A DNA stretch of 41,180 bases from a virus. Its lineage: Duplodnaviria > Heunggongvirae > Uroviricota > Caudoviricetes. How positions within the stretch are numbered: position 1 is the stretch's first letter; each line of letters opens with the position of its first letter. The notes under the pieces are model-generated. The model was given only the letters and a program-made list of their open reading frames with translations. It made no database searches and was not told where the DNA came from. Positions 3,756-17,402 of this stretch are shown here, piece by piece. Location of the stretch: IMG/VR virus record IMGVR_UViG_3300002835_000066, positions 64,001 to 105,180 of that record. One strand, 5' to 3'. The translations under genes and the position numbers were made by a program.

Positions 3756-3808
3756 AATATTTTATGTTTTGGGCATCGGAATAAAGTTCACAGGTGTGCT
3801 TTTTTTTG

Positions 3809-3815
3809 CTAAATA
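3809..3815 (+). promoter_or_regulatory. late promoter CTAAATA (leaderless configuration)
   Basis: CTAAATA-CATA-ATG(3820), preceded by a T8 tract; no SD. Confidence 0.6.
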
Positions 3816-3819
3816 CATA

Positions 3820-4188
3820 ATGATTACAGTGCAACCAACTAGACCCATCTGCTCGCATTGTAAATTTGCGCTCGCTCGACCTAACGGGAAGAGCAAGCAC
3901 GGCTTCCAAAAGTGGCATAAGTATTGTGTTGACTGTGCTAAAGCCATGTATAATGGTAGATTCAAACATCTACAGCATAAGAAAGGCTCATGTGAGCAAT
4001 GCAGTTTTGTACCGGAAGATAAATGTCAGATGGATTTGGTTTTTAAAGATGGCAATAAGAAAAATAAAAAGATGAACAATCTATTGACACTGTGCGCTAA
4101 TTGTGCTAGACTACATAATAAGAAAGTTCGTACTGGCAACAAGTCTATTCTAAATGCTACCGTCGACGGCGATACTAGGATTTCATGA
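3820..4188 (+). CDS. zinc-finger protein with degenerate HNH motif (122 aa)
   Basis: Four CxxC pairs; DLVFKDGNKKNKKMNNLLTLCANCARLH aligns by eye to the HNH pattern DxDHxDGNxxNNxxxNLxxLCxNCH. Start reassigned from 3619 to ATG 3820. Confidence 0.7.
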   Translation: MITVQPTRPICSHCKFALARPNGKSKHGFQKWHKYCVDCAKAMYNGRFKHLQHKKGSCEQCSFVPEDKCQMDLVFKDGNKKNKKMNNLLTLCANCARLHNKKVRTGNKSILNATVDGDTRIS

Positions 4189-5699
4189 TGAGAGGGATTA
4201 TAGTAGGTGATAACTTTTACGACGAACCAAGGGTAGCTATCATCAGAACAAATGGTGCGCACCGAGTAGCTGGACTAATGCGAAACCAGGGACTAGAAGT
4301 TGAAGTTTTAGATTTTTTCAATTCATGGGAAATGCCAGAGCTTGAACAAGTGTTAAATGCCTATTGTCCAGACTTTATTGGATTAAGTTTTGGACTAGGT
4401 CAGCTTAATGATGTGCGGGTAAATAGTTTCATCTCGTTAGCAAAAGCAATAAATCCCAAAATTAAAGTCATTGCAGGTGGCGCTCAAGTACTACACAATA
4501 ATATTAAAAACATTGATTTACATTTTAAAGGGTTTGCTGACGGAGCAATTGACGATATTGTAGCATATCTAAAGACCGATATCTACCCCAATGAGTCATT
4601 AGTGAAAAATATTGATTTGGGATTACCTAAAAAAGTAGTAGACTGTACTCATTACTATTCAAGATTTGATTTGTCTAACCTAAGAACTAACTATACTGCA
4701 AACGATTTTCTATCTCCCCATGAGAATTTGACGTTAGAAACTAGCAGAGGATGCATTTTTAGATGTAAATTCTGCAACTTCCCGTTGATTGGTAAAAATA
4801 AAAATGACTATATCAGAACCAAAGAAGATTTAAAGCAAGAAATTATTTACAACTATGAAACATACGGTATATCACAATACAGTATTACTGACGACACCTT
4901 CAACGACAATGAGATTAAGATAAACAATCTGTATGAGATTTCTCAAGAGATTGACTTTGAGTTAAAGTTCATGTGTTATGCTAGAATAGACTTGTTACAT
5001 GCTAGACCCGGTTCATTGGATAAGATGATGAAGTTTGGGGTTAAGGGAATGTTTCTTGGAATTGAATCGTTGAATCTTGAAACTAGCAAAATAATAGGAA
5101 AAGGATTTGCAGGAGAAAAGTTGATAAACTATCTTAGAGAAGTCAAACAGCAATACCCAAAGCTGCATTTTATCGGATCATATATTATAGGGTTACCTAA
5201 AGAAACACTTGAACAAGCTAGGTATAATATCAATTTTGCAATTGACGAAGGATTAATTGATAATTCTCCGTTGTATGCGTTGCATATTACTAAGGATACA
5301 GGAGGCATAGACACTTCTATTTTCTCTAAAGAATGGGATCAGTATGGTTATGAAGAAATGAGTTTAGATGAAATAAATGATTTACTAACTCAACCCAAAT
5401 ATAGTGCGTTAAAAAATGTAGATTATGAGACTTTTAGTAAGCACAACGTTATTTGGAAGAATGAGCATATGAATTATCTTGATGCACAACTAGGTGCATT
5501 GCAAATACGAGCAGACATAGAACCAAAAACTGGTATGGGCGGATGGAATTGCTTTGCTGCTGCATATACGAAAATTCCAGTTGAGAAACTATTACAGTTA
5601 AACAGAACTGAGTGGGATTGGGAATATGTTAAGAAATCTGCTGTAGATTTTGTAGAAGATTATAAGCATAAGAAAATATCAGTTTTGTGCAATACGTGA
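4185..5699 (+). CDS. B12-binding-domain (class B-like) radical SAM protein
   Basis: LETSRGCIFRCKFCNF (CxxxCxxC); N-terminal Rossmann-like region (IKVIAGGAQV); YSITDDTFN and MFLGIESLN motifs; ATGA overlap with the upstream gene. Confidence 0.9.
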   Translation: MMRGIIVGDNFYDEPRVAIIRTNGAHRVAGLMRNQGLEVEVLDFFNSWEMPELEQVLNAYCPDFIGLSFGLGQLNDVRVNSFISLAKAINPKIKVIAGGAQVLHNNIKNIDLHFKGFADGAIDDIVAYLKTDIYPNESLVKNIDLGLPKKVVDCTHYYSRFDLSNLRTNYTANDFLSPHENLTLETSRGCIFRCKFCNFPLIGKNKNDYIRTKEDLKQEIIYNYETYGISQYSITDDTFNDNEIKINNLYEISQEIDFELKFMCYARIDLLHARPGSLDKMMKFGVKGMFLGIESLNLETSKIIGKGFAGEKLINYLREVKQQYPKLHFIGSYIIGLPKETLEQARYNINFAIDEGLIDNSPLYALHITKDTGGIDTSIFSKEWDQYGYEEMSLDEINDLLTQPKYSALKNVDYETFSKHNVIWKNEHMNYLDAQLGALQIRADIEPKTGMGGWNCFAAAYTKIPVEKLLQLNRTEWDWEYVKKSAVDFVEDYKHKKISVLCNT

Positions 5700-12392: not shown

Positions 12393-15300
12393 TTAAACCA
12401 TACTGTTCTTTAATATCTTTTCTCTAGTATCGTTACCATCAGAGATAGCACTAACCATATCGCCTAGTTTACTGAGCATACCCTCTACTAATTCAGCATT
12501 CATATTCACTACTCTTTCGAGAATTTCTTTTTCCATAGTTGGCGCAGTAGAAGATATTGCGTTGGATATTTCTGGTGTCTCTGCCGGAGTTTTAGCTAAT
12601 TTCGCCAATACCGAATCTTGTGTTAGTGGAGTTATCATTTCAGAGCCGTGCATTTCAACTGGATATCCAGAATCCGGACCTTTGACTAAGCCGCCTTTTC
12701 TAGCTTGTAAAGAAGATTTTTTAGGAGACTCAATGTGCATATGACTGTAATGCCCTGGTGCCTTCCATATAACTTTAAATCCATCTGATCTGGCAGAATC
12801 TGCAATTTGATCAAACTTAGCTCTTGCCTTAGGATCTTTTGATTCATTTACGCCTCTGCCGATGTTAATGTCAATTGCTCTTCCCTCATAATGGCCTCTA
12901 CCTTTATGCACCGGTGCTACTCCACCGAATGCAGGATGTTCAGCCACTCTAATTCCCTGATCTTGTAATCGTTGTCCTAGGGCAACAATATCTTTGCTTC
13001 CGCCGCCTTGGCCCGCATTTTTTCCTTCTTTTAATACCTCAACTTTTCCTGCTTTAAACCCTTCAATTTTTTCCATGGCATTTAGCATAGCAGTTCTTTG
13101 TTCAGGAGTCAAATCACGCAGCGGAGTATTAGAGTTTACCCCTAATGCTTTTACAATAGTGTTTATGTAGCCTCTTGTATCATTTTCATTAGGCGGAGCA
13201 TATTTACTGATTGCTCCGGCAATAGTTTTGTTTTTATATTTGCTAGTATTAAACAGTAGTTCCTCTTTTGCTTTGCGACCCTGTTCATACGAGGAGAATA
13301 CTGCAAAACCTCCGGATTGCCCTACTGCTCCCTGACTTCTTGCAAAATCACCAGCCCTAATATTTCCGGGGTTATTATTTCGCCAAGCTAGTGTCCCTGT
13401 TCGTTTTTCTTCTCTGCCATCTTCATATTGAAGGTTAGTATATCCCGCGCCGCCTCCTGTTACCTTTGTCGCTGATCCACTTGTGCTGGTTGAGTCGCTG
13501 TCGGCATAATTAGAGCTACCAGGAGAGCTATCAGGAGAGCTACTAGGAGAGCTACTAGGAGAGCTACCGTCAGTGCTTGCGTCCTCGTCTTCTTCATCAA
13601 CACCTGCTATTTTATTTAGGATCTTTGAAGCATCAGTTAAACTTCTTCTAAACTGCATCATAGATTCTTCAGTGAATCTATGTCGTTTCATTTCGGCTTC
13701 TCTAAGACTATCTGTGCTTAGTGCAGCATCTGCCAATGAAGTCTTGAGTCTTTCAATATAATCAACTACATCAAGCTCATTATCATCTTCCATGGGAGTG
13801 CCTAATAACCCAGAAGATTTTCCTTTAACTTTGCTATTAATAGATCCCATTGCATTAATTGATTTATTTTGGTCTGCAAACATTTTTACAGCTTTTGCGA
13901 AAGTGCCGGTGATAGTCGCAAATGCTTGCACTGTTTTAGCAAATGCCGTTACAGTTTTAGCAAATGCTATTATAAGTTTACCGAACGATTCTATATTTTT
14001 TCCGAATGACGTAGCAACGGAAGAGGACATCCCTTTATTCGGACTGCCTAATTTATTTACAATTTCACCAAACTTCTCTACATGCTTACCGAATGCATCA
14101 GCAAACTTACCGTCGGCAGTTGCAGCGGATGCTTTTGCTGCATCTTTAGATTCGGGTTTAACAGCACTTAATTTTTTATCCAAATATTCGGTTTCAGATT
14201 TTACTCTATCTGCTTGAGCTTGGTTAGCTAAATTATCCATGAACATAAATCTACCGATATGTTCTATTCCGCGAGCTAACGATGATTGAGTTTTTTCCCA
14301 AGTTGACGCTCTTTCCCAATTTTTGTCATCTTGGCTTTGGATAGTTTTAGAGTCTAGATCTTTACCTACACCAGCGGCACCAAATCCTGCATCAATTACG
14401 TATGCGCCGCCTGCAACAATCGCAGCACCTTTTGCTGCTTTTAATAGTTGTGCTCCTTTACCAGCAGCGGCTGCTCCGCCTGCACCGGCTGCTCCTGCAC
14501 CTGCTGCTCCTGCGCCTGCTGCTCCTGCGCCTGCTGCTCCTGCACCGGCTGCTCTTGCGCCTGCTGCTCCTGCGCCTGCTGCTCCTGCGCCTGCTGCTCC
14601 TGCACCGGCTGCTCTTGCGCCGCCTGCTGCTGCTCCTCCTGCTAATCTAGCAAGTCCGCCCCTAGCTGCAATTGCAAGTGCAGCTAACCCAGCTGCGCCT
14701 GCTAGTGCGATTAATGCGGTGGAAGCAATCCCTAAATTACCTGCAAAACTATCAAATGCTGTTCTTAGAGCAATTTCAGTTTCAGTTAATATATTTCTAG
14801 CTTGCTGACGAGAATCTTCTGCTGCTTTACCCTTTCCGGCTGCATTATCATCTATTCTTTTTTGTATATCGGCTGCTGCCTTTTCTTGATCTAAGCCGAA
14901 CAGTCTGTTGCGTTCGGTTATACCACCGGTACCGCCGACTAAGTTTGCAGCATCAGGGCTTATCGCAGCGGCTATTTTAAGTTGATCCTGAGCCTTAGCA
15001 GAACTATCGGTTATAGCTTGAGTGTATTTTGCTGCGTCCTTCGCAGAGTTTATATTTCCGGCCCTAGTTTCTCTAGCTAATTCTTGAATGGTACCTAGGG
15101 TTCCACTAACTGCCATAGTGCCTAAACCTTCGGTAATAGGAGCTCCGGCCAGCGCCTGTCCATAACCCCTGCCTGCCTCTTCCCCTTGAAGTGCAGTTAT
15201 TTGAGCCTTAGTAGCCATTGCTAATTCAACTTGTGCAGCAAGTTTCTGTTTTTCTTCTTCAGTTGATGCCGACGCTATTTTTTTATTCATGTCGGCTACA

Positions 15301-16259
15301 TATAGCTGAAACTGGGTGTCGGCTGCCGCCGCTGCCATACGCTTTGTTTGATCCTCAACACTAAGTCCAGTCATGTCACTTAATGCTTGTAAATTTTTAA
15401 CATAAGCTAGAGATGTTTTTTGTAGTGTCTTCATTTCGCCATTAAATGAACGTAAAGATAAGCCAGCGCCGCCCATTAACTCAACGTAACCAGCTTGTGC
15501 TTCTACTAATTCAGCTTGGCTATATCCCAATCTCTGAAATTCTTGGCGAACCTCAGAGCCGACATTGGCCATTTCCATAAATCTGTTGGTAGAATCTACT
15601 GCACCATTACCAAGTTGCTTAAATGTTGACCCTAATTTTTGCATAGGTGCCATCAGTTTGTCTAAATCTTTAGCAGCAAACCCAATCTTATTTGCCATAC
15701 TAAGAATTTCATCGGTATTGAATGCATTAGCTGCACCCATTTTAGATATTTGATCATTGAATTTTAGAAGCGAATCTGCTTGTGCAAGTTGGTATTGCAT
15801 CAACATCGTTGCTGCCTTAACAACCCCGCCTATAACAGTGCCTAATATTCCAAAGTTCTTTCCTAAATCTAACGCAGCATCACCGGCTGAACCAATCATA
15901 CCGTTATATTTTGAAAACGAATGTGTACTGTCCATTATCACTGAACCTAGTGATAAGAATCCATTGGCAACAGTTCCCATTGCTTTGTTAATTCTATCAG
16001 TAGCTTCTTGGACTGCTTCTTGTCTTTCTTTTTCTGCCCGAGCATAAGCTTCTTCTTTTTTAGTAAGCTCTTCGGTAGATTCAGTGAGTTCTTTAGTGGC
16101 TTTAGTTGCTTTAGCTGAAGCTGTAGTTGATTTATCTGAAGCAGCAGTCAGGTCTTTCATGGATTTCATTTGAGCAGCCATCATGGCATTTTGCTCACTT
16201 AAGATTTCATACATTTCCCTTAATTGTTCATTAAGGCGTTCTACAATTTCCGGATCCAT
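12393..16259 (-). CDS. tape-measure-like tail protein with lysozyme-like and peptidase M15-like domains
   Basis: 1288 aa, Ala/Gln/Lys-rich helical body and hydrophobic Gly/Ala segment; RNNNPGNIR...ISKYAPPNENDT; HYEGRAID (H-x6-D) plus HMH; C-terminal GGLVKGPDSGYPVEMHGSEMITPL. Confidence 0.8.
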   Translation of the reverse strand: MDPEIVERLNEQLREMYEILSEQNAMMAAQMKSMKDLTAASDKSTTASAKATKATKELTESTEELTKKEEAYARAEKERQEAVQEATDRINKAMGTVANGFLSLGSVIMDSTHSFSKYNGMIGSAGDAALDLGKNFGILGTVIGGVVKAATMLMQYQLAQADSLLKFNDQISKMGAANAFNTDEILSMANKIGFAAKDLDKLMAPMQKLGSTFKQLGNGAVDSTNRFMEMANVGSEVRQEFQRLGYSQAELVEAQAGYVELMGGAGLSLRSFNGEMKTLQKTSLAYVKNLQALSDMTGLSVEDQTKRMAAAAADTQFQLYVADMNKKIASASTEEEKQKLAAQVELAMATKAQITALQGEEAGRGYGQALAGAPITEGLGTMAVSGTLGTIQELARETRAGNINSAKDAAKYTQAITDSSAKAQDQLKIAAAISPDAANLVGGTGGITERNRLFGLDQEKAAADIQKRIDDNAAGKGKAAEDSRQQARNILTETEIALRTAFDSFAGNLGIASTALIALAGAAGLAALAIAARGGLARLAGGAAAGGARAAGAGAAGAGAAGAGAAGARAAGAGAAGAGAAGAGAAGAGAAGAGGAAAAGKGAQLLKAAKGAAIVAGGAYVIDAGFGAAGVGKDLDSKTIQSQDDKNWERASTWEKTQSSLARGIEHIGRFMFMDNLANQAQADRVKSETEYLDKKLSAVKPESKDAAKASAATADGKFADAFGKHVEKFGEIVNKLGSPNKGMSSSVATSFGKNIESFGKLIIAFAKTVTAFAKTVQAFATITGTFAKAVKMFADQNKSINAMGSINSKVKGKSSGLLGTPMEDDNELDVVDYIERLKTSLADAALSTDSLREAEMKRHRFTEESMMQFRRSLTDASKILNKIAGVDEEDEDASTDGSSPSSSPSSSPDSSPGSSNYADSDSTSTSGSATKVTGGGAGYTNLQYEDGREEKRTGTLAWRNNNPGNIRAGDFARSQGAVGQSGGFAVFSSYEQGRKAKEELLFNTSKYKNKTIAGAISKYAPPNENDTRGYINTIVKALGVNSNTPLRDLTPEQRTAMLNAMEKIEGFKAGKVEVLKEGKNAGQGGGSKDIVALGQRLQDQGIRVAEHPAFGGVAPVHKGRGHYEGRAIDINIGRGVNESKDPKARAKFDQIADSARSDGFKVIWKAPGHYSHMHIESPKKSSLQARKGGLVKGPDSGYPVEMHGSEMITPLTQDSVLAKLAKTPAETPEISNAISSTAPTMEKEILERVVNMNAELVEGMLSKLGDMVSAISDGNDTREKILKNSMV
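13512..13568. repeat. 12-bp tandem repeat (about 5 units, SSSP-type)
   Basis: agagcta recurs at 13512, 13524, 13536, 13548 and 13560. Confidence 0.9.
14466..14640. repeat. 15-bp tandem repeat encoding GAGAA, with a 60-bp higher-order duplication
   Basis: gcgcctgctgctcct-type units; 14501-14560 is identical to 14561-14620. Confidence 0.95.
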
Positions 16260-16353: not shown

Positions 16354-17178
16354 ATGGACAATAATCCACTAAGACAATATTTCAGAAGACCAGCAGTCTA
16401 CATTAGTTTGCCGTCGAAGGGCGAAGGTTATTCTAATGAGGACTTAGAAATGCCAGAAACCAATGAGCTTCCAGTATACCCAATGACTGCAATTGATGAG
16501 ATTACAGCAAGAACTCCAGACGCATTGTTTAACGGAACATCAATCGTTGACTTAATTAAAAGCTGTGTGCCGAGTATCAAGAACCCATGGGCTATCAAAA
16601 GCGTAGACATGGATGCTATCTTGATTGGTATTAGGGCTGCTAGCGGCGGAGAAATGCTAGAGATTGATACTACTTGCCCTAGTTGCGAAGTTACTGCAAC
16701 CTATAGCATCAATCTTATCGCAGCATTAAGTTCGTTGAAGCCAGGAAATTACAAGGCACCGCTTGAAGTCGGTAACTTAAAAATCAAATTTAGACCACTA
16801 GTATATAGTGAAATGAATCAAGCTTCGCTGGGTCAGTTTGAGGTTCAAAAGTTCTTCGATGCACTTTACACGATTGAAACCGACGAAGAAAGAAATGCTG
16901 CTAGCCGAGAAGCACTAGAAAAAATCACGTTCTTGACAATGGACATTCTAAGCAAAACCATTGAATACATTGAGACTCCTAATGGCAACGTAGACGATAA
17001 AGCATTTATTCTAGATTTCATGAAAAATTGTGATAATACAGTTTACAACTCTATTCGAGACCACAGTGCTGAACTTAAAGAAGGCACTGAACTCAAGCCT
17101 GCAACGATTAATTGCGCTAGCTGTAGCCATGAATACGACCAGGCATACAGCATTAACCCAACGGATTTTTTCGGCTAA
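16354..17178 (+). CDS. baseplate hub/tail assembly chaperone, T4 gp26/gp51-family-like
   Basis: NPLRQYFRRP, MTAIDEITARTPDALFNG, DMDAILIGIRAAS, CPSC...CASC zinc ribbon; SD AAGGA. Confidence 0.75.
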   Translation: MDNNPLRQYFRRPAVYISLPSKGEGYSNEDLEMPETNELPVYPMTAIDEITARTPDALFNGTSIVDLIKSCVPSIKNPWAIKSVDMDAILIGIRAASGGEMLEIDTTCPSCEVTATYSINLIAALSSLKPGNYKAPLEVGNLKIKFRPLVYSEMNQASLGQFEVQKFFDALYTIETDEERNAASREALEKITFLTMDILSKTIEYIETPNGNVDDKAFILDFMKNCDNTVYNSIRDHSAELKEGTELKPATINCASCSHEYDQAYSINPTDFFG

Positions 17179-17220
17179 AGCTTCTTATATCAAAACCCGA
17201 AGATATTAAGAAGCTATTAG
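17166..17220 (+). other. putative -1 programmed ribosomal frameshift signal
   Basis: In-frame heptamer T TTT TTC (17166-17172), 6-nt spacer, hairpin AGCTTCTTATATC (17179-17191) / GATATTAAGAAGCT (17202-17215), extendable by CTAA/TTAG. Confidence 0.75.
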
Positions 17221-17402
17221 ACCAATACGAAAAAGACGCAGCAGAAATTAAGGCCTCAGCCCTATCAATGTCTTGGCATATGAGGGGCGGGGCCAGCTAC
17301 GTGGATATACTAAACATGTCTACTGCCGAACGCAAAGAGATAGCCTCTATCATAGAAAGCAATCTTGACATAACTAAGAAAACTCAGTTACCTTACTTCT
17401 GA
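17172..17402 (+). CDS. gp51-like ORF in the -1 frame (76 codons), probable C-terminal extension of the upstream gene
   Basis: Manual translation RLKLLISKPEDIKKLLDQYEKDAAEIKASALSMSWHMRGGASYVDILNMSTAERKEIASIIESNLDITKKTQLPYF*; frame opens after TAA 17154-17156; first ATG only at 17268. Confidence 0.75.
   Translation, partial: RLKLLISKPEDIKKLLDQYEKDAAEIKASALSMSWHMRGGASYVDILNMSTAERKEIASIIESNLDITKKTQLPYF

Follow-up and report, generated by a model that had tools for sequence, protein, structure and literature searches.

How does a phage express a conserved open reading frame (ORF) that begins within the end of another gene, in a different frame, and has no start codon for much of its length? The question is raised by a stretch of 41,180 nucleotides (nt), here called the window, which covers positions 64,001 to 105,180 of the virus record IMGVR_UViG_3300002835_000066. 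The source phage is uncultured and was found in lake-water metagenomes. Its window contains a gene of the family of T4 gene product 26 (gp26), predicted to act in assembly of the baseplate hub, and the frame in question overlaps the 3' end of that gene. We find a slippery heptamer at this point, followed by a stable predicted hairpin, and the same heptamer recurs in every complete homologous locus that we sampled outside the T4 group. These signals very probably direct some ribosomes into the -1 frame, as a programmed frameshift, where the gp26-family gene ends.

Short and long tail chaperones made by frameshifting are a hallmark of long-tailed phages, and Xu, Hendrix and Duda reportedly described a conserved -1 frameshift of tail assembly chaperone genes in 2004. 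T4-like phages are the best-studied myoviruses, and a chaperone frameshift is not reported for them in searchable papers. In phage lambda, as set out in a review on recoding, a -1 slip close to the tail assembly chaperone gene's 3' end yields a short form, gpG, and a C-terminally extended form, gpGT (Atkins et al. 2016, PMC5009743). Leiman et al. 2010 (PMC3004832, Table 2) count T4 gp26 and gp51 among the hub assembly chaperones and report that the particle lacks gp51.

Predicted frameshift signals in the window

The ORF of 274 amino acids (aa) ends GAT TTT TTC GGC TAA, which places the heptamer T_TTT_TTC in X_XXY_YYZ register at 17166-17172. The first-pass annotation, made from the letters of the window, had pointed to this heptamer, to a hairpin behind it and to two products of different length; the heptamer and the hairpin were borne out, and the predicted product lengths agree. 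A TAA at 17154-17156 closes the -1 frame, which opens 15 nt upstream of the last heptamer base and, counted from the slip, reads 76 codons (17172-17399) up to TGA at 17400-17402. The first ATG, GTG or TTG in this frame is the ATG at 17268, which is codon 32. A hairpin begins 6 nt after the heptamer, with a core of 17179-17191 paired with 17202-17215 and one bulge. The segment 17173-17232 folds at -18.3 kcal/mol with a z-score of -7.2, and none of 200 shuffled sequences was as stable. Thus, the window holds what is looked for in a programmed -1 frameshift, namely an in-register heptamer, a stable structure after a 6-nt spacer (about 5-9 nt being expected) and a long -1 ORF. The predicted products have 274 aa and 273 + 76 = 349 aa, the latter with the junction INPTDFF/RLK (here and below, a slash marks the point of the shift).

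We suggest that most ribosomes would read through GAT TTT TTC GGC to the TAA and release the 274-aa protein. A fraction would pause at the hairpin, where both tRNA-Phe would slip one base back on U_UUU_UUC (tandem -1 slippage). The -1 frame would then be translated for 76 codons, giving a 349-aa protein with the same body and an added small helical C-terminal domain. We infer the slippage itself from these signals, and its efficiency is probably low because T4 gp51 has been described as acting catalytically.

A frame change beside a run of T might instead be a homopolymer error of sequencing or assembly, or the mark of a decaying gene, and what is really encoded would then be one uninterrupted ORF of 349 aa or a pseudogene. 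Some sequencing chemistries do make errors in homopolymer runs. However, positions 17050-17450 are identical, with no difference or indel, in four separate public assemblies from different runs and years, and the frame change is thus not an assembly error. The same frame arrangement is also found in 183 loci, including independently sequenced isolate genomes. Sequencing error is excluded as the cause of the frame change, and the probability that we leave to an artefact of any of these kinds is negligible.

The zero-frame product

The 274-aa protein matches Pfam family PF12322 (T4_baseplate) with an expectation value (E) of 7.9e-17 and 62.1 bits, against a curated cut-off of 24.5, and it matches phrog_150, 'baseplate hub', at E 8.5e-15. 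Its body was modelled by AlphaFold2 (AF2) with a predicted local distance difference test score (pLDDT) of 87, and the model matches predicted 'baseplate hub assembly protein, T4-like' structures in BFVD (E 2e-24, template modelling (TM) score 0.89). Sequence search gave no solved relative of this gp26-like body and Foldseek gave no convincing match in the PDB, while VIA-align (wide) with the body model returned just a generic helical hairpin (Z 8.8 over 55 residues). Because blastn of the region against a phage collection gave no match, protein-level searches were needed. Among named phages, the gene has its nearest relatives, with 25-35% identity, in the jumbo phages Phosso, Atu_ph07, PA5oct, PBECO4/121Q, RaK2, GAP32, CBB, XacN1 and others.

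The body and its homologues share two invariant CxxC pairs (C108/C111 and C254/C257), which suggest a zinc-binding site in this part of the protein. In T4 gp51 the second pair is degenerate (SCC). The gp26 homologue of Yersinia phage fHe-Yen9-04 (689-1564 of the sampled locus) carries the label 'Lead, cadmium, zinc and mercury transporting ATPase', which is probably a mistake of automatic annotation set off by the CxxC motifs.

Conservation of the heptamer

We sampled five sets of loci, and heptamer counts refer to complete homologous loci outside the T4 group only, 183 in all. The heptamer is present in register in all 183, between 1 and 11 codons before the stop. It was found in 92/92 complete loci of the first sample (the window, four named jumbo phages and 87 IMG/VR loci), in seven of seven further named jumbo phages, in both CBB and phAPEC6, in all three of S-WAM1 (a cyanophage), OLIVR5 (Pootjesviridae) and LPCS28 (Straboviridae, Nanhuvirus), and in 79/79 complete cyanophage-type IMG/VR loci. 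A proposed check on homologues, that Phe-Phe be written TTT TTC after a T and be accompanied by a conserved -1 overlap, thus came out in favour of slippage. In three Xanthomonas/Stenotrophomonas phages (XacN1, Xoo-sp13 and CM1) T_TTT_TTT replaces T_TTT_TTC, a variation between C and T at Z that a slippery site allows. The same three phages have zero-frame tails of 10-11 codons, and their extensions start Y-S/R-... (the slash here giving alternative residues) instead of R-x-x-L-L.

The zero-frame stop lies exactly one codon past the heptamer in 90/92 loci of the first sample and in 79/79 cyanophage-type loci, and across the loci the zero-frame tail of 1-11 codons is conserved in neither length nor sequence. 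In a set of 139 unique genes, Phe-Phe is preceded by one of just seven codons (GAT, TCT, AGT, GCT, AAT, CAT or CGT), which stand for six amino acids and each have T as their last base. In the remainder of those genes, the same amino acids use T-ending codons just 33-77% of the time, and Phe-Phe is written TTT-TTC in none of 91 occurrences. The recurrence of heptamer, frame and extension in every sampled relative outside the T4 group is far beyond chance.

These data bear on an alternative that treats the ORF beyond the heptamer as a small gene in its own right ('gp51'), with translation beginning at an internal start (the ATG at 17268) or by termination-reinitiation at the gp26 stop, and the heptamer as a mere reflection of a conserved Phe-Phe motif. 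Such a motif does exist as a protein feature, since even the non-slipping T4 gp26 retains Phe-Phe. However, a protein motif does not account for the T-TTT-TTC codon choice, which holds whichever of the seven codons comes first and which the rest of these genes avoid. Additional evidence on this alternative, which we regard as very improbable, comes from the extension itself.

The -1 frame extension

A -1 ORF of 57-80 codons is present in each of the 183 complete loci. The 63 unique homologous extensions from jumbo-clade loci of the first sample are conserved from the first post-slip codon, with R-x-x-L-L at their start. Coding conservation upstream of the internal ATG, a second expectation of the first-pass annotation, is also found, with entropies by codon position of 1.01/0.76/1.46 over extension codons 3-31. 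The only ORF with a conventional start within the window's extension has 44 aa, and its 32 upstream codons are conserved with coding periodicity; judged by these patterns, it does not appear to be the functional unit.

Across the 92 loci of the first sample, the first ATG, GTG or TTG of the -1 ORF drifts from codon 1 to codon 36, and in PA5oct there is none; in cyanophage-type loci the first start is at codon 3, 4, 8, 9 or 19. Thus, start position is not conserved, whereas the heptamer is invariant. This speaks against a separate gene, as does the lack of any start codon for 32 conserved codons in the window and throughout the frame in PA5oct. On the other side, such ORFs are annotated as genes of their own in databases. 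The extension has been called from an internal ATG in Atu_ph07 and OLIVR5 and as a separate ORF in Phosso, PBECO4, GAP32 and XacN1, and the ORF is unannotated in the PA5oct, RaK2 and S-WAM1 records. None of the database records examined contains a joined or slippage coding sequence at the gp26-family gene.

In its AF2 model (pLDDT 88) the extension is helical, and the long form is predicted to end in a small domain of this kind. A Foldseek search of this model against the PDB returned nothing below E 2.

Selection on the downstream RNA structure

Native folds downstream of the heptamer were compared with synonymous recodings that keep the extension peptide, in two large clades (jumbo and cyanophage). 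Among 67 jumbo-clade sequences the mean z was -2.64 (native -14.6, recoded -7.8 kcal/mol), against -0.39 for a control region within the extension. The cyanophage clade gave a mean z of -2.39 with a stem of different sequence. On 60 aligned sites a stem specified in advance by its pairs was 75.8% paired, compared with 42-56% when slid by 1-3 columns. Compensatory changes were seen at pair 15-52 (GC in 39 sequences, AU in 12), pair 18-49 (UA in 44, CG in 7) and pair 23-42 (AU in 15, CG in 14, UA in 6), and the covariation score of the stem was reached by none of 500 shuffles. These patterns indicate that the stem downstream of the heptamer is under selection in both large clades. A selected stem that follows a slip site is a further argument against a separate downstream gene.

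Relation to T4 genes 26 and 51

If the window gene makes two forms, the short and the long form would correspond to T4 gp26 and gp51. T4 gp51 (249 aa) matches PF12322 at E 3.9e-52 over residues 1-201 and has about 48 extra C-terminal residues; by this match it is a paralogue of gp26 over its whole length, to which a tail is added in frame. When conceptual long forms are aligned with gp51 and gp26, gp51 runs on in frame (VDVF/KLLVNPDE) where the others shift (FF/R-x-x-LL), and gp26 ends there. The family phrog_634, 'baseplate hub assembly catalyst', matches T4 gp51 residues 147-246 and also the -1 extensions of S-WAM1 (E 1.9e-30), LPCS28 (3.5e-10) and OLIVR5 (5.5e-8). A hidden Markov model (HMM) of cyanophage extensions finds gp51 tails at 20-28 bits. 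By these sequence matches, the gp51 tail is clearly homologous to the -1 extension in cyanophages. An HMM of the extension gave no match in a search of the whole T4 genome. In T4 gp51 this tail is joined in frame to a body like that of gp26, which speaks against a separate downstream gene.

T4 gene 26 ends GAG TTC TTT GAG TTA CTA TAA, and the ATG of gene 25 overlaps this end. Here Phe-Phe is retained in a form that is not slippery, and TGA closes the -1 frame; T4 gp26 stops three residues past the Phe-Phe that it shares with the window gene. Genes 26 and 51 lie on opposite strands of T4 and are divergently transcribed. A single PF12322 gene with the heptamer is present in eight complete genomes (PA5oct, RaK2, Atu_ph07, S-WAM1, PBECO4, OLIVR5, LPCS28 and XacN1), whereas T4 and Aeromonas phage avDM7 have two PF12322 genes and no heptamer. 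The slip-site gene and the two-gene solution are mutually exclusive in the complete genomes compared. T4 has two paralogous genes and no slip site, whereas in the window phage one gene and a -1 frameshift would supply both forms, and would thus be the equivalent of T4 genes 26 and 51.

This comparison bears out the first of two earlier proposals, with a caveat, and the second in part. One labelled the downstream ORF 'gp51-like', and the other held that the small 'gp51' annotated after 'gp26' in T4-like phages may be a frameshift extension. Small 'gp51' ORFs of the OLIVR5 type, which come after gp26 in non-T-even T4-like phages, match the window's extension in position and frame and form the distal part of -1 ORFs behind T_TTT_TTC, and records treat them as genes of their own that start at an internal ATG; in OLIVR5 this is the ORF labelled 'baseplate hub assembly catalyst'. 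OLIVR5 therefore agrees with both proposals, and the phrog_634 links agree with the label, but the match of the window's own tail is weak. The second proposal does not extend to T4, where gene 51 is a divergently transcribed paralogue of 249 aa.

T4 gp25, which is encoded after gene 26 in the -1 frame, was considered as the equivalent of the extension and rejected, as the TGA closes the -1 frame right after Phe-Phe and there is no similarity. The T4 record also lists a second product, 26', from an internal start in gene 26 (3803-4429 of the sampled locus). T4 thus makes a nested pair from gene 26, besides the paralogue gp51.

Evidence against frameshifting

Several observations weigh against a programmed frameshift. 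RNAalifold found no consensus structure for the 60 aligned sites, a result of the inner stem being placed in two different registers. The window's extension has no direct match to Pfam (chance-level hits) or to phrog_634 (none at E <= 1), and its link to the gp51 tail is weak. In hhalign, the window extension aligns with cyanophage extensions plus gp51 tails at P 4e-4 over just 28 co-linear columns (motif sY..IlNMs..ER), which is a weak result. The jumbo-clade extension has 76 aa compared with about 50 aa for the T4 gp51 tail, and their sequence similarity is weak. Homology of the window extension to the gp51 tail rests partly on position and is likely but not proven.

Start codons near the stop also count against frameshifting and in favour of a separate gene. 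An ATG overlaps the stop or lies just past it in Phosso, Atu_ph07 and PBECO4 (as ATGA or TAATG overlaps) and in many cyanophages, with an ATG at codon 3-4 in 51 of the 79 cyanophage-type loci. In these lineages, independent or coupled initiation could provide an additional expression route. It does not account for the window or PA5oct.

Additionally, a homopolymer run of six T could in principle support transcriptional slippage, in which RNA polymerase would add one U in the run and a subset of mRNAs would encode the fusion. The outcome would be the same short and long products, and sequence conservation alone cannot discriminate between the two processes. However, productive slippage by bacterial polymerase usually needs runs of about nine or more, and the run of six T never lengthens in the 183 loci. 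The invariant X_XXY_YYZ register and a selected hairpin at a spacing of 6-8 nt are features of ribosomal frameshifting, and we consider slippage by the polymerase very unlikely. A programmed -1 ribosomal frameshift, by comparison, agrees with the homologues in each respect in which they were compared: the Phe-Phe slip site, the conserved -1 overlap and the coding conservation upstream of the internal ATG.

Genomic context

The 105-kb IMG/VR contig is estimated to be 29% of its genome, which indicates a jumbo phage. T4-type late genes surround the gp26-family gene, including those for portal, prohead protease, major head protein, a gp46/gp47-like nuclease and a late sigma factor, and a baseplate block. 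Coordinates of the features discussed here are given in Table 1.

Table 1. Features at and around the gp26-family gene of the window
Feature	Positions	Strand	Basis or remark
gp26-family gene, short product of 274 aa	16354-17178	+	PF12322, phrog_150, AF2 model
Slippery heptamer T_TTT_TTC, X_XXY_YYZ register	17166-17172	+	Read from sequence
Spacer, made of the final sense codon GGC plus the zero-frame TAA (17176-17178)	17173-17178	+	Read from sequence
Predicted stimulatory stem-loop, extending to 17173-17223	17179-17215	+	Fold energy, recoding test, covariation
-1 extension, 76 codons and TGA; C17172 would be read twice	17172-17402	+	Predicted long product of 349 aa = 16354-17172 joined to 17172-17399
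Sole ORF with conventional start within the extension, 44 aa	17268-17402	+	ORF list
Divergent neighbour, 1288 aa, probable tape measure protein with lytic domain	12393-16259	-	Language-model look-alikes, phrog_873, RaK2 annotation
Two hairpins and T-run, terminator-like	17408-17456	+	Fold -12.7 kcal/mol, z -2.7

The product of the divergent neighbour is probably a tape measure protein that also carries lytic domains. Look-alikes found with a language model belong to tape measure families (scores 0.88-0.91, a lead only), its RaK2 counterpart is annotated as resembling a tail tape measure protein, and phrog_873, 'endolysin', matches its residues 955-1069. Within the protein, a long repeat rich in Ala and Gly (AGAGAAG units) spans about residues 520-600, a lysozyme-like segment coincides with the phrog_873 match and a peptidase-like motif lies at the C-terminus. 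The divergent order of the gp26 homologue and the tape-measure-like gene is also found in PA5oct, RaK2, PBECO4 and CBB. Among the virion proteins listed for CBB and phAPEC6 is the counterpart of this neighbour, and the gp26 homologue is on neither list. Likewise, the PA5oct record carries a mark of electrospray ionization tandem mass spectrometry (ESI-MS/MS) on the counterpart of the tape-measure-like neighbour only, and none on the gp26 homologue.

Directly after the stop of the extension are two hairpins, the first with a stem of 8 bp and a loop of 3 nt and the second with a stem of 5 bp and a loop of 14 nt, and then TTTTT; by sequence they look like a terminator of the gp26 unit. A consensus terminator scan did not list this element, because the second loop is long. 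Between the -1 extension and a PD-(D/E)XK nuclease gene is an ORF-free stretch (17457-17866), and relatives also have an unannotated gap at the matching position, of about 840 nt in PBECO4 and about 365 nt in RaK2. An Rfam search of 17100-17950 matched no family.

Comparison with lambda G/GT

The window gene resembles lambda G/GT in having -1 slip signals near its 3' end, two products with a common N-terminus (as far as sequence signals alone indicate), a probable non-virion status and an adjacent probable tape measure gene. However, the tape measure gene of lambda has the chaperone gene immediately upstream and on its own strand, whereas the window gene is adjacent but divergent, on the opposite strand. 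The slip site U_UUU_UUC with its strong hairpin is listed as another difference from lambda G/GT, and the T4 homologues act in hub assembly, unlike lambda G/GT, which act in tube polymerisation. None of the known tail assembly chaperone families is among the Pfam or PHROG matches of the window gene. The first-pass annotation had called the pair the G/GT equivalent, and we would keep this description for the expression logic and the adjacency to a probable tape measure gene, but the opposite strand does not fit it, and the searches detected no homology to known tail assembly chaperone families. The resemblance to lambda G/GT thus seems to concern expression logic only.

We suspect that the two forms act together as non-virion chaperones that would assemble the hub around the tape-measure-like neighbour, much as lambda G/GT act for gpH. 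A wider reading, which we put forward tentatively and at somewhat less than even odds, is that gp26/gp51 could be the long-sought functional counterpart of lambda G/GT across the T4 superfamily. In this reading the tape measure protein would be coated by the short form and docked to the hub or tube initiator by the rare long form, via the helical tail of the latter. The ratio of the two would have been set ancestrally by -1 frameshifting, and in T-even phages by two separately regulated paralogues. If true, this would explain both the catalytic amounts of T4 gp51 and the apparent lack in T4 of the near-universal chaperone frameshift.

Implications for T4-related phages

Our search of the openly readable literature found no paper reporting a frameshift at gp26/gp51 or in RaK2-group phages. 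In its accessible part, the recoding review cited above (Atkins et al. 2016, PMC5009743) makes no mention of baseplate, gene 26 or cyanophage, and a paper on pheL frameshifting contains no occurrence of the heptamer motif.

The conserved slip site in cyanophages, jumbo phages and other T4 relatives would represent a widespread recoding event that genome annotation has missed or mis-annotated. Additionally, it suggests an evolutionary account of T4 genes 26 and 51, in which two frameshift products may have been fixed as duplicate genes. What gp51 'catalyses' would thereby become testable via the ratio and the partners of the two forms. The sites also offer a natural series of U_UUU_UUC-plus-hairpin signals in which frameshift efficiency could be followed across diverse hosts.

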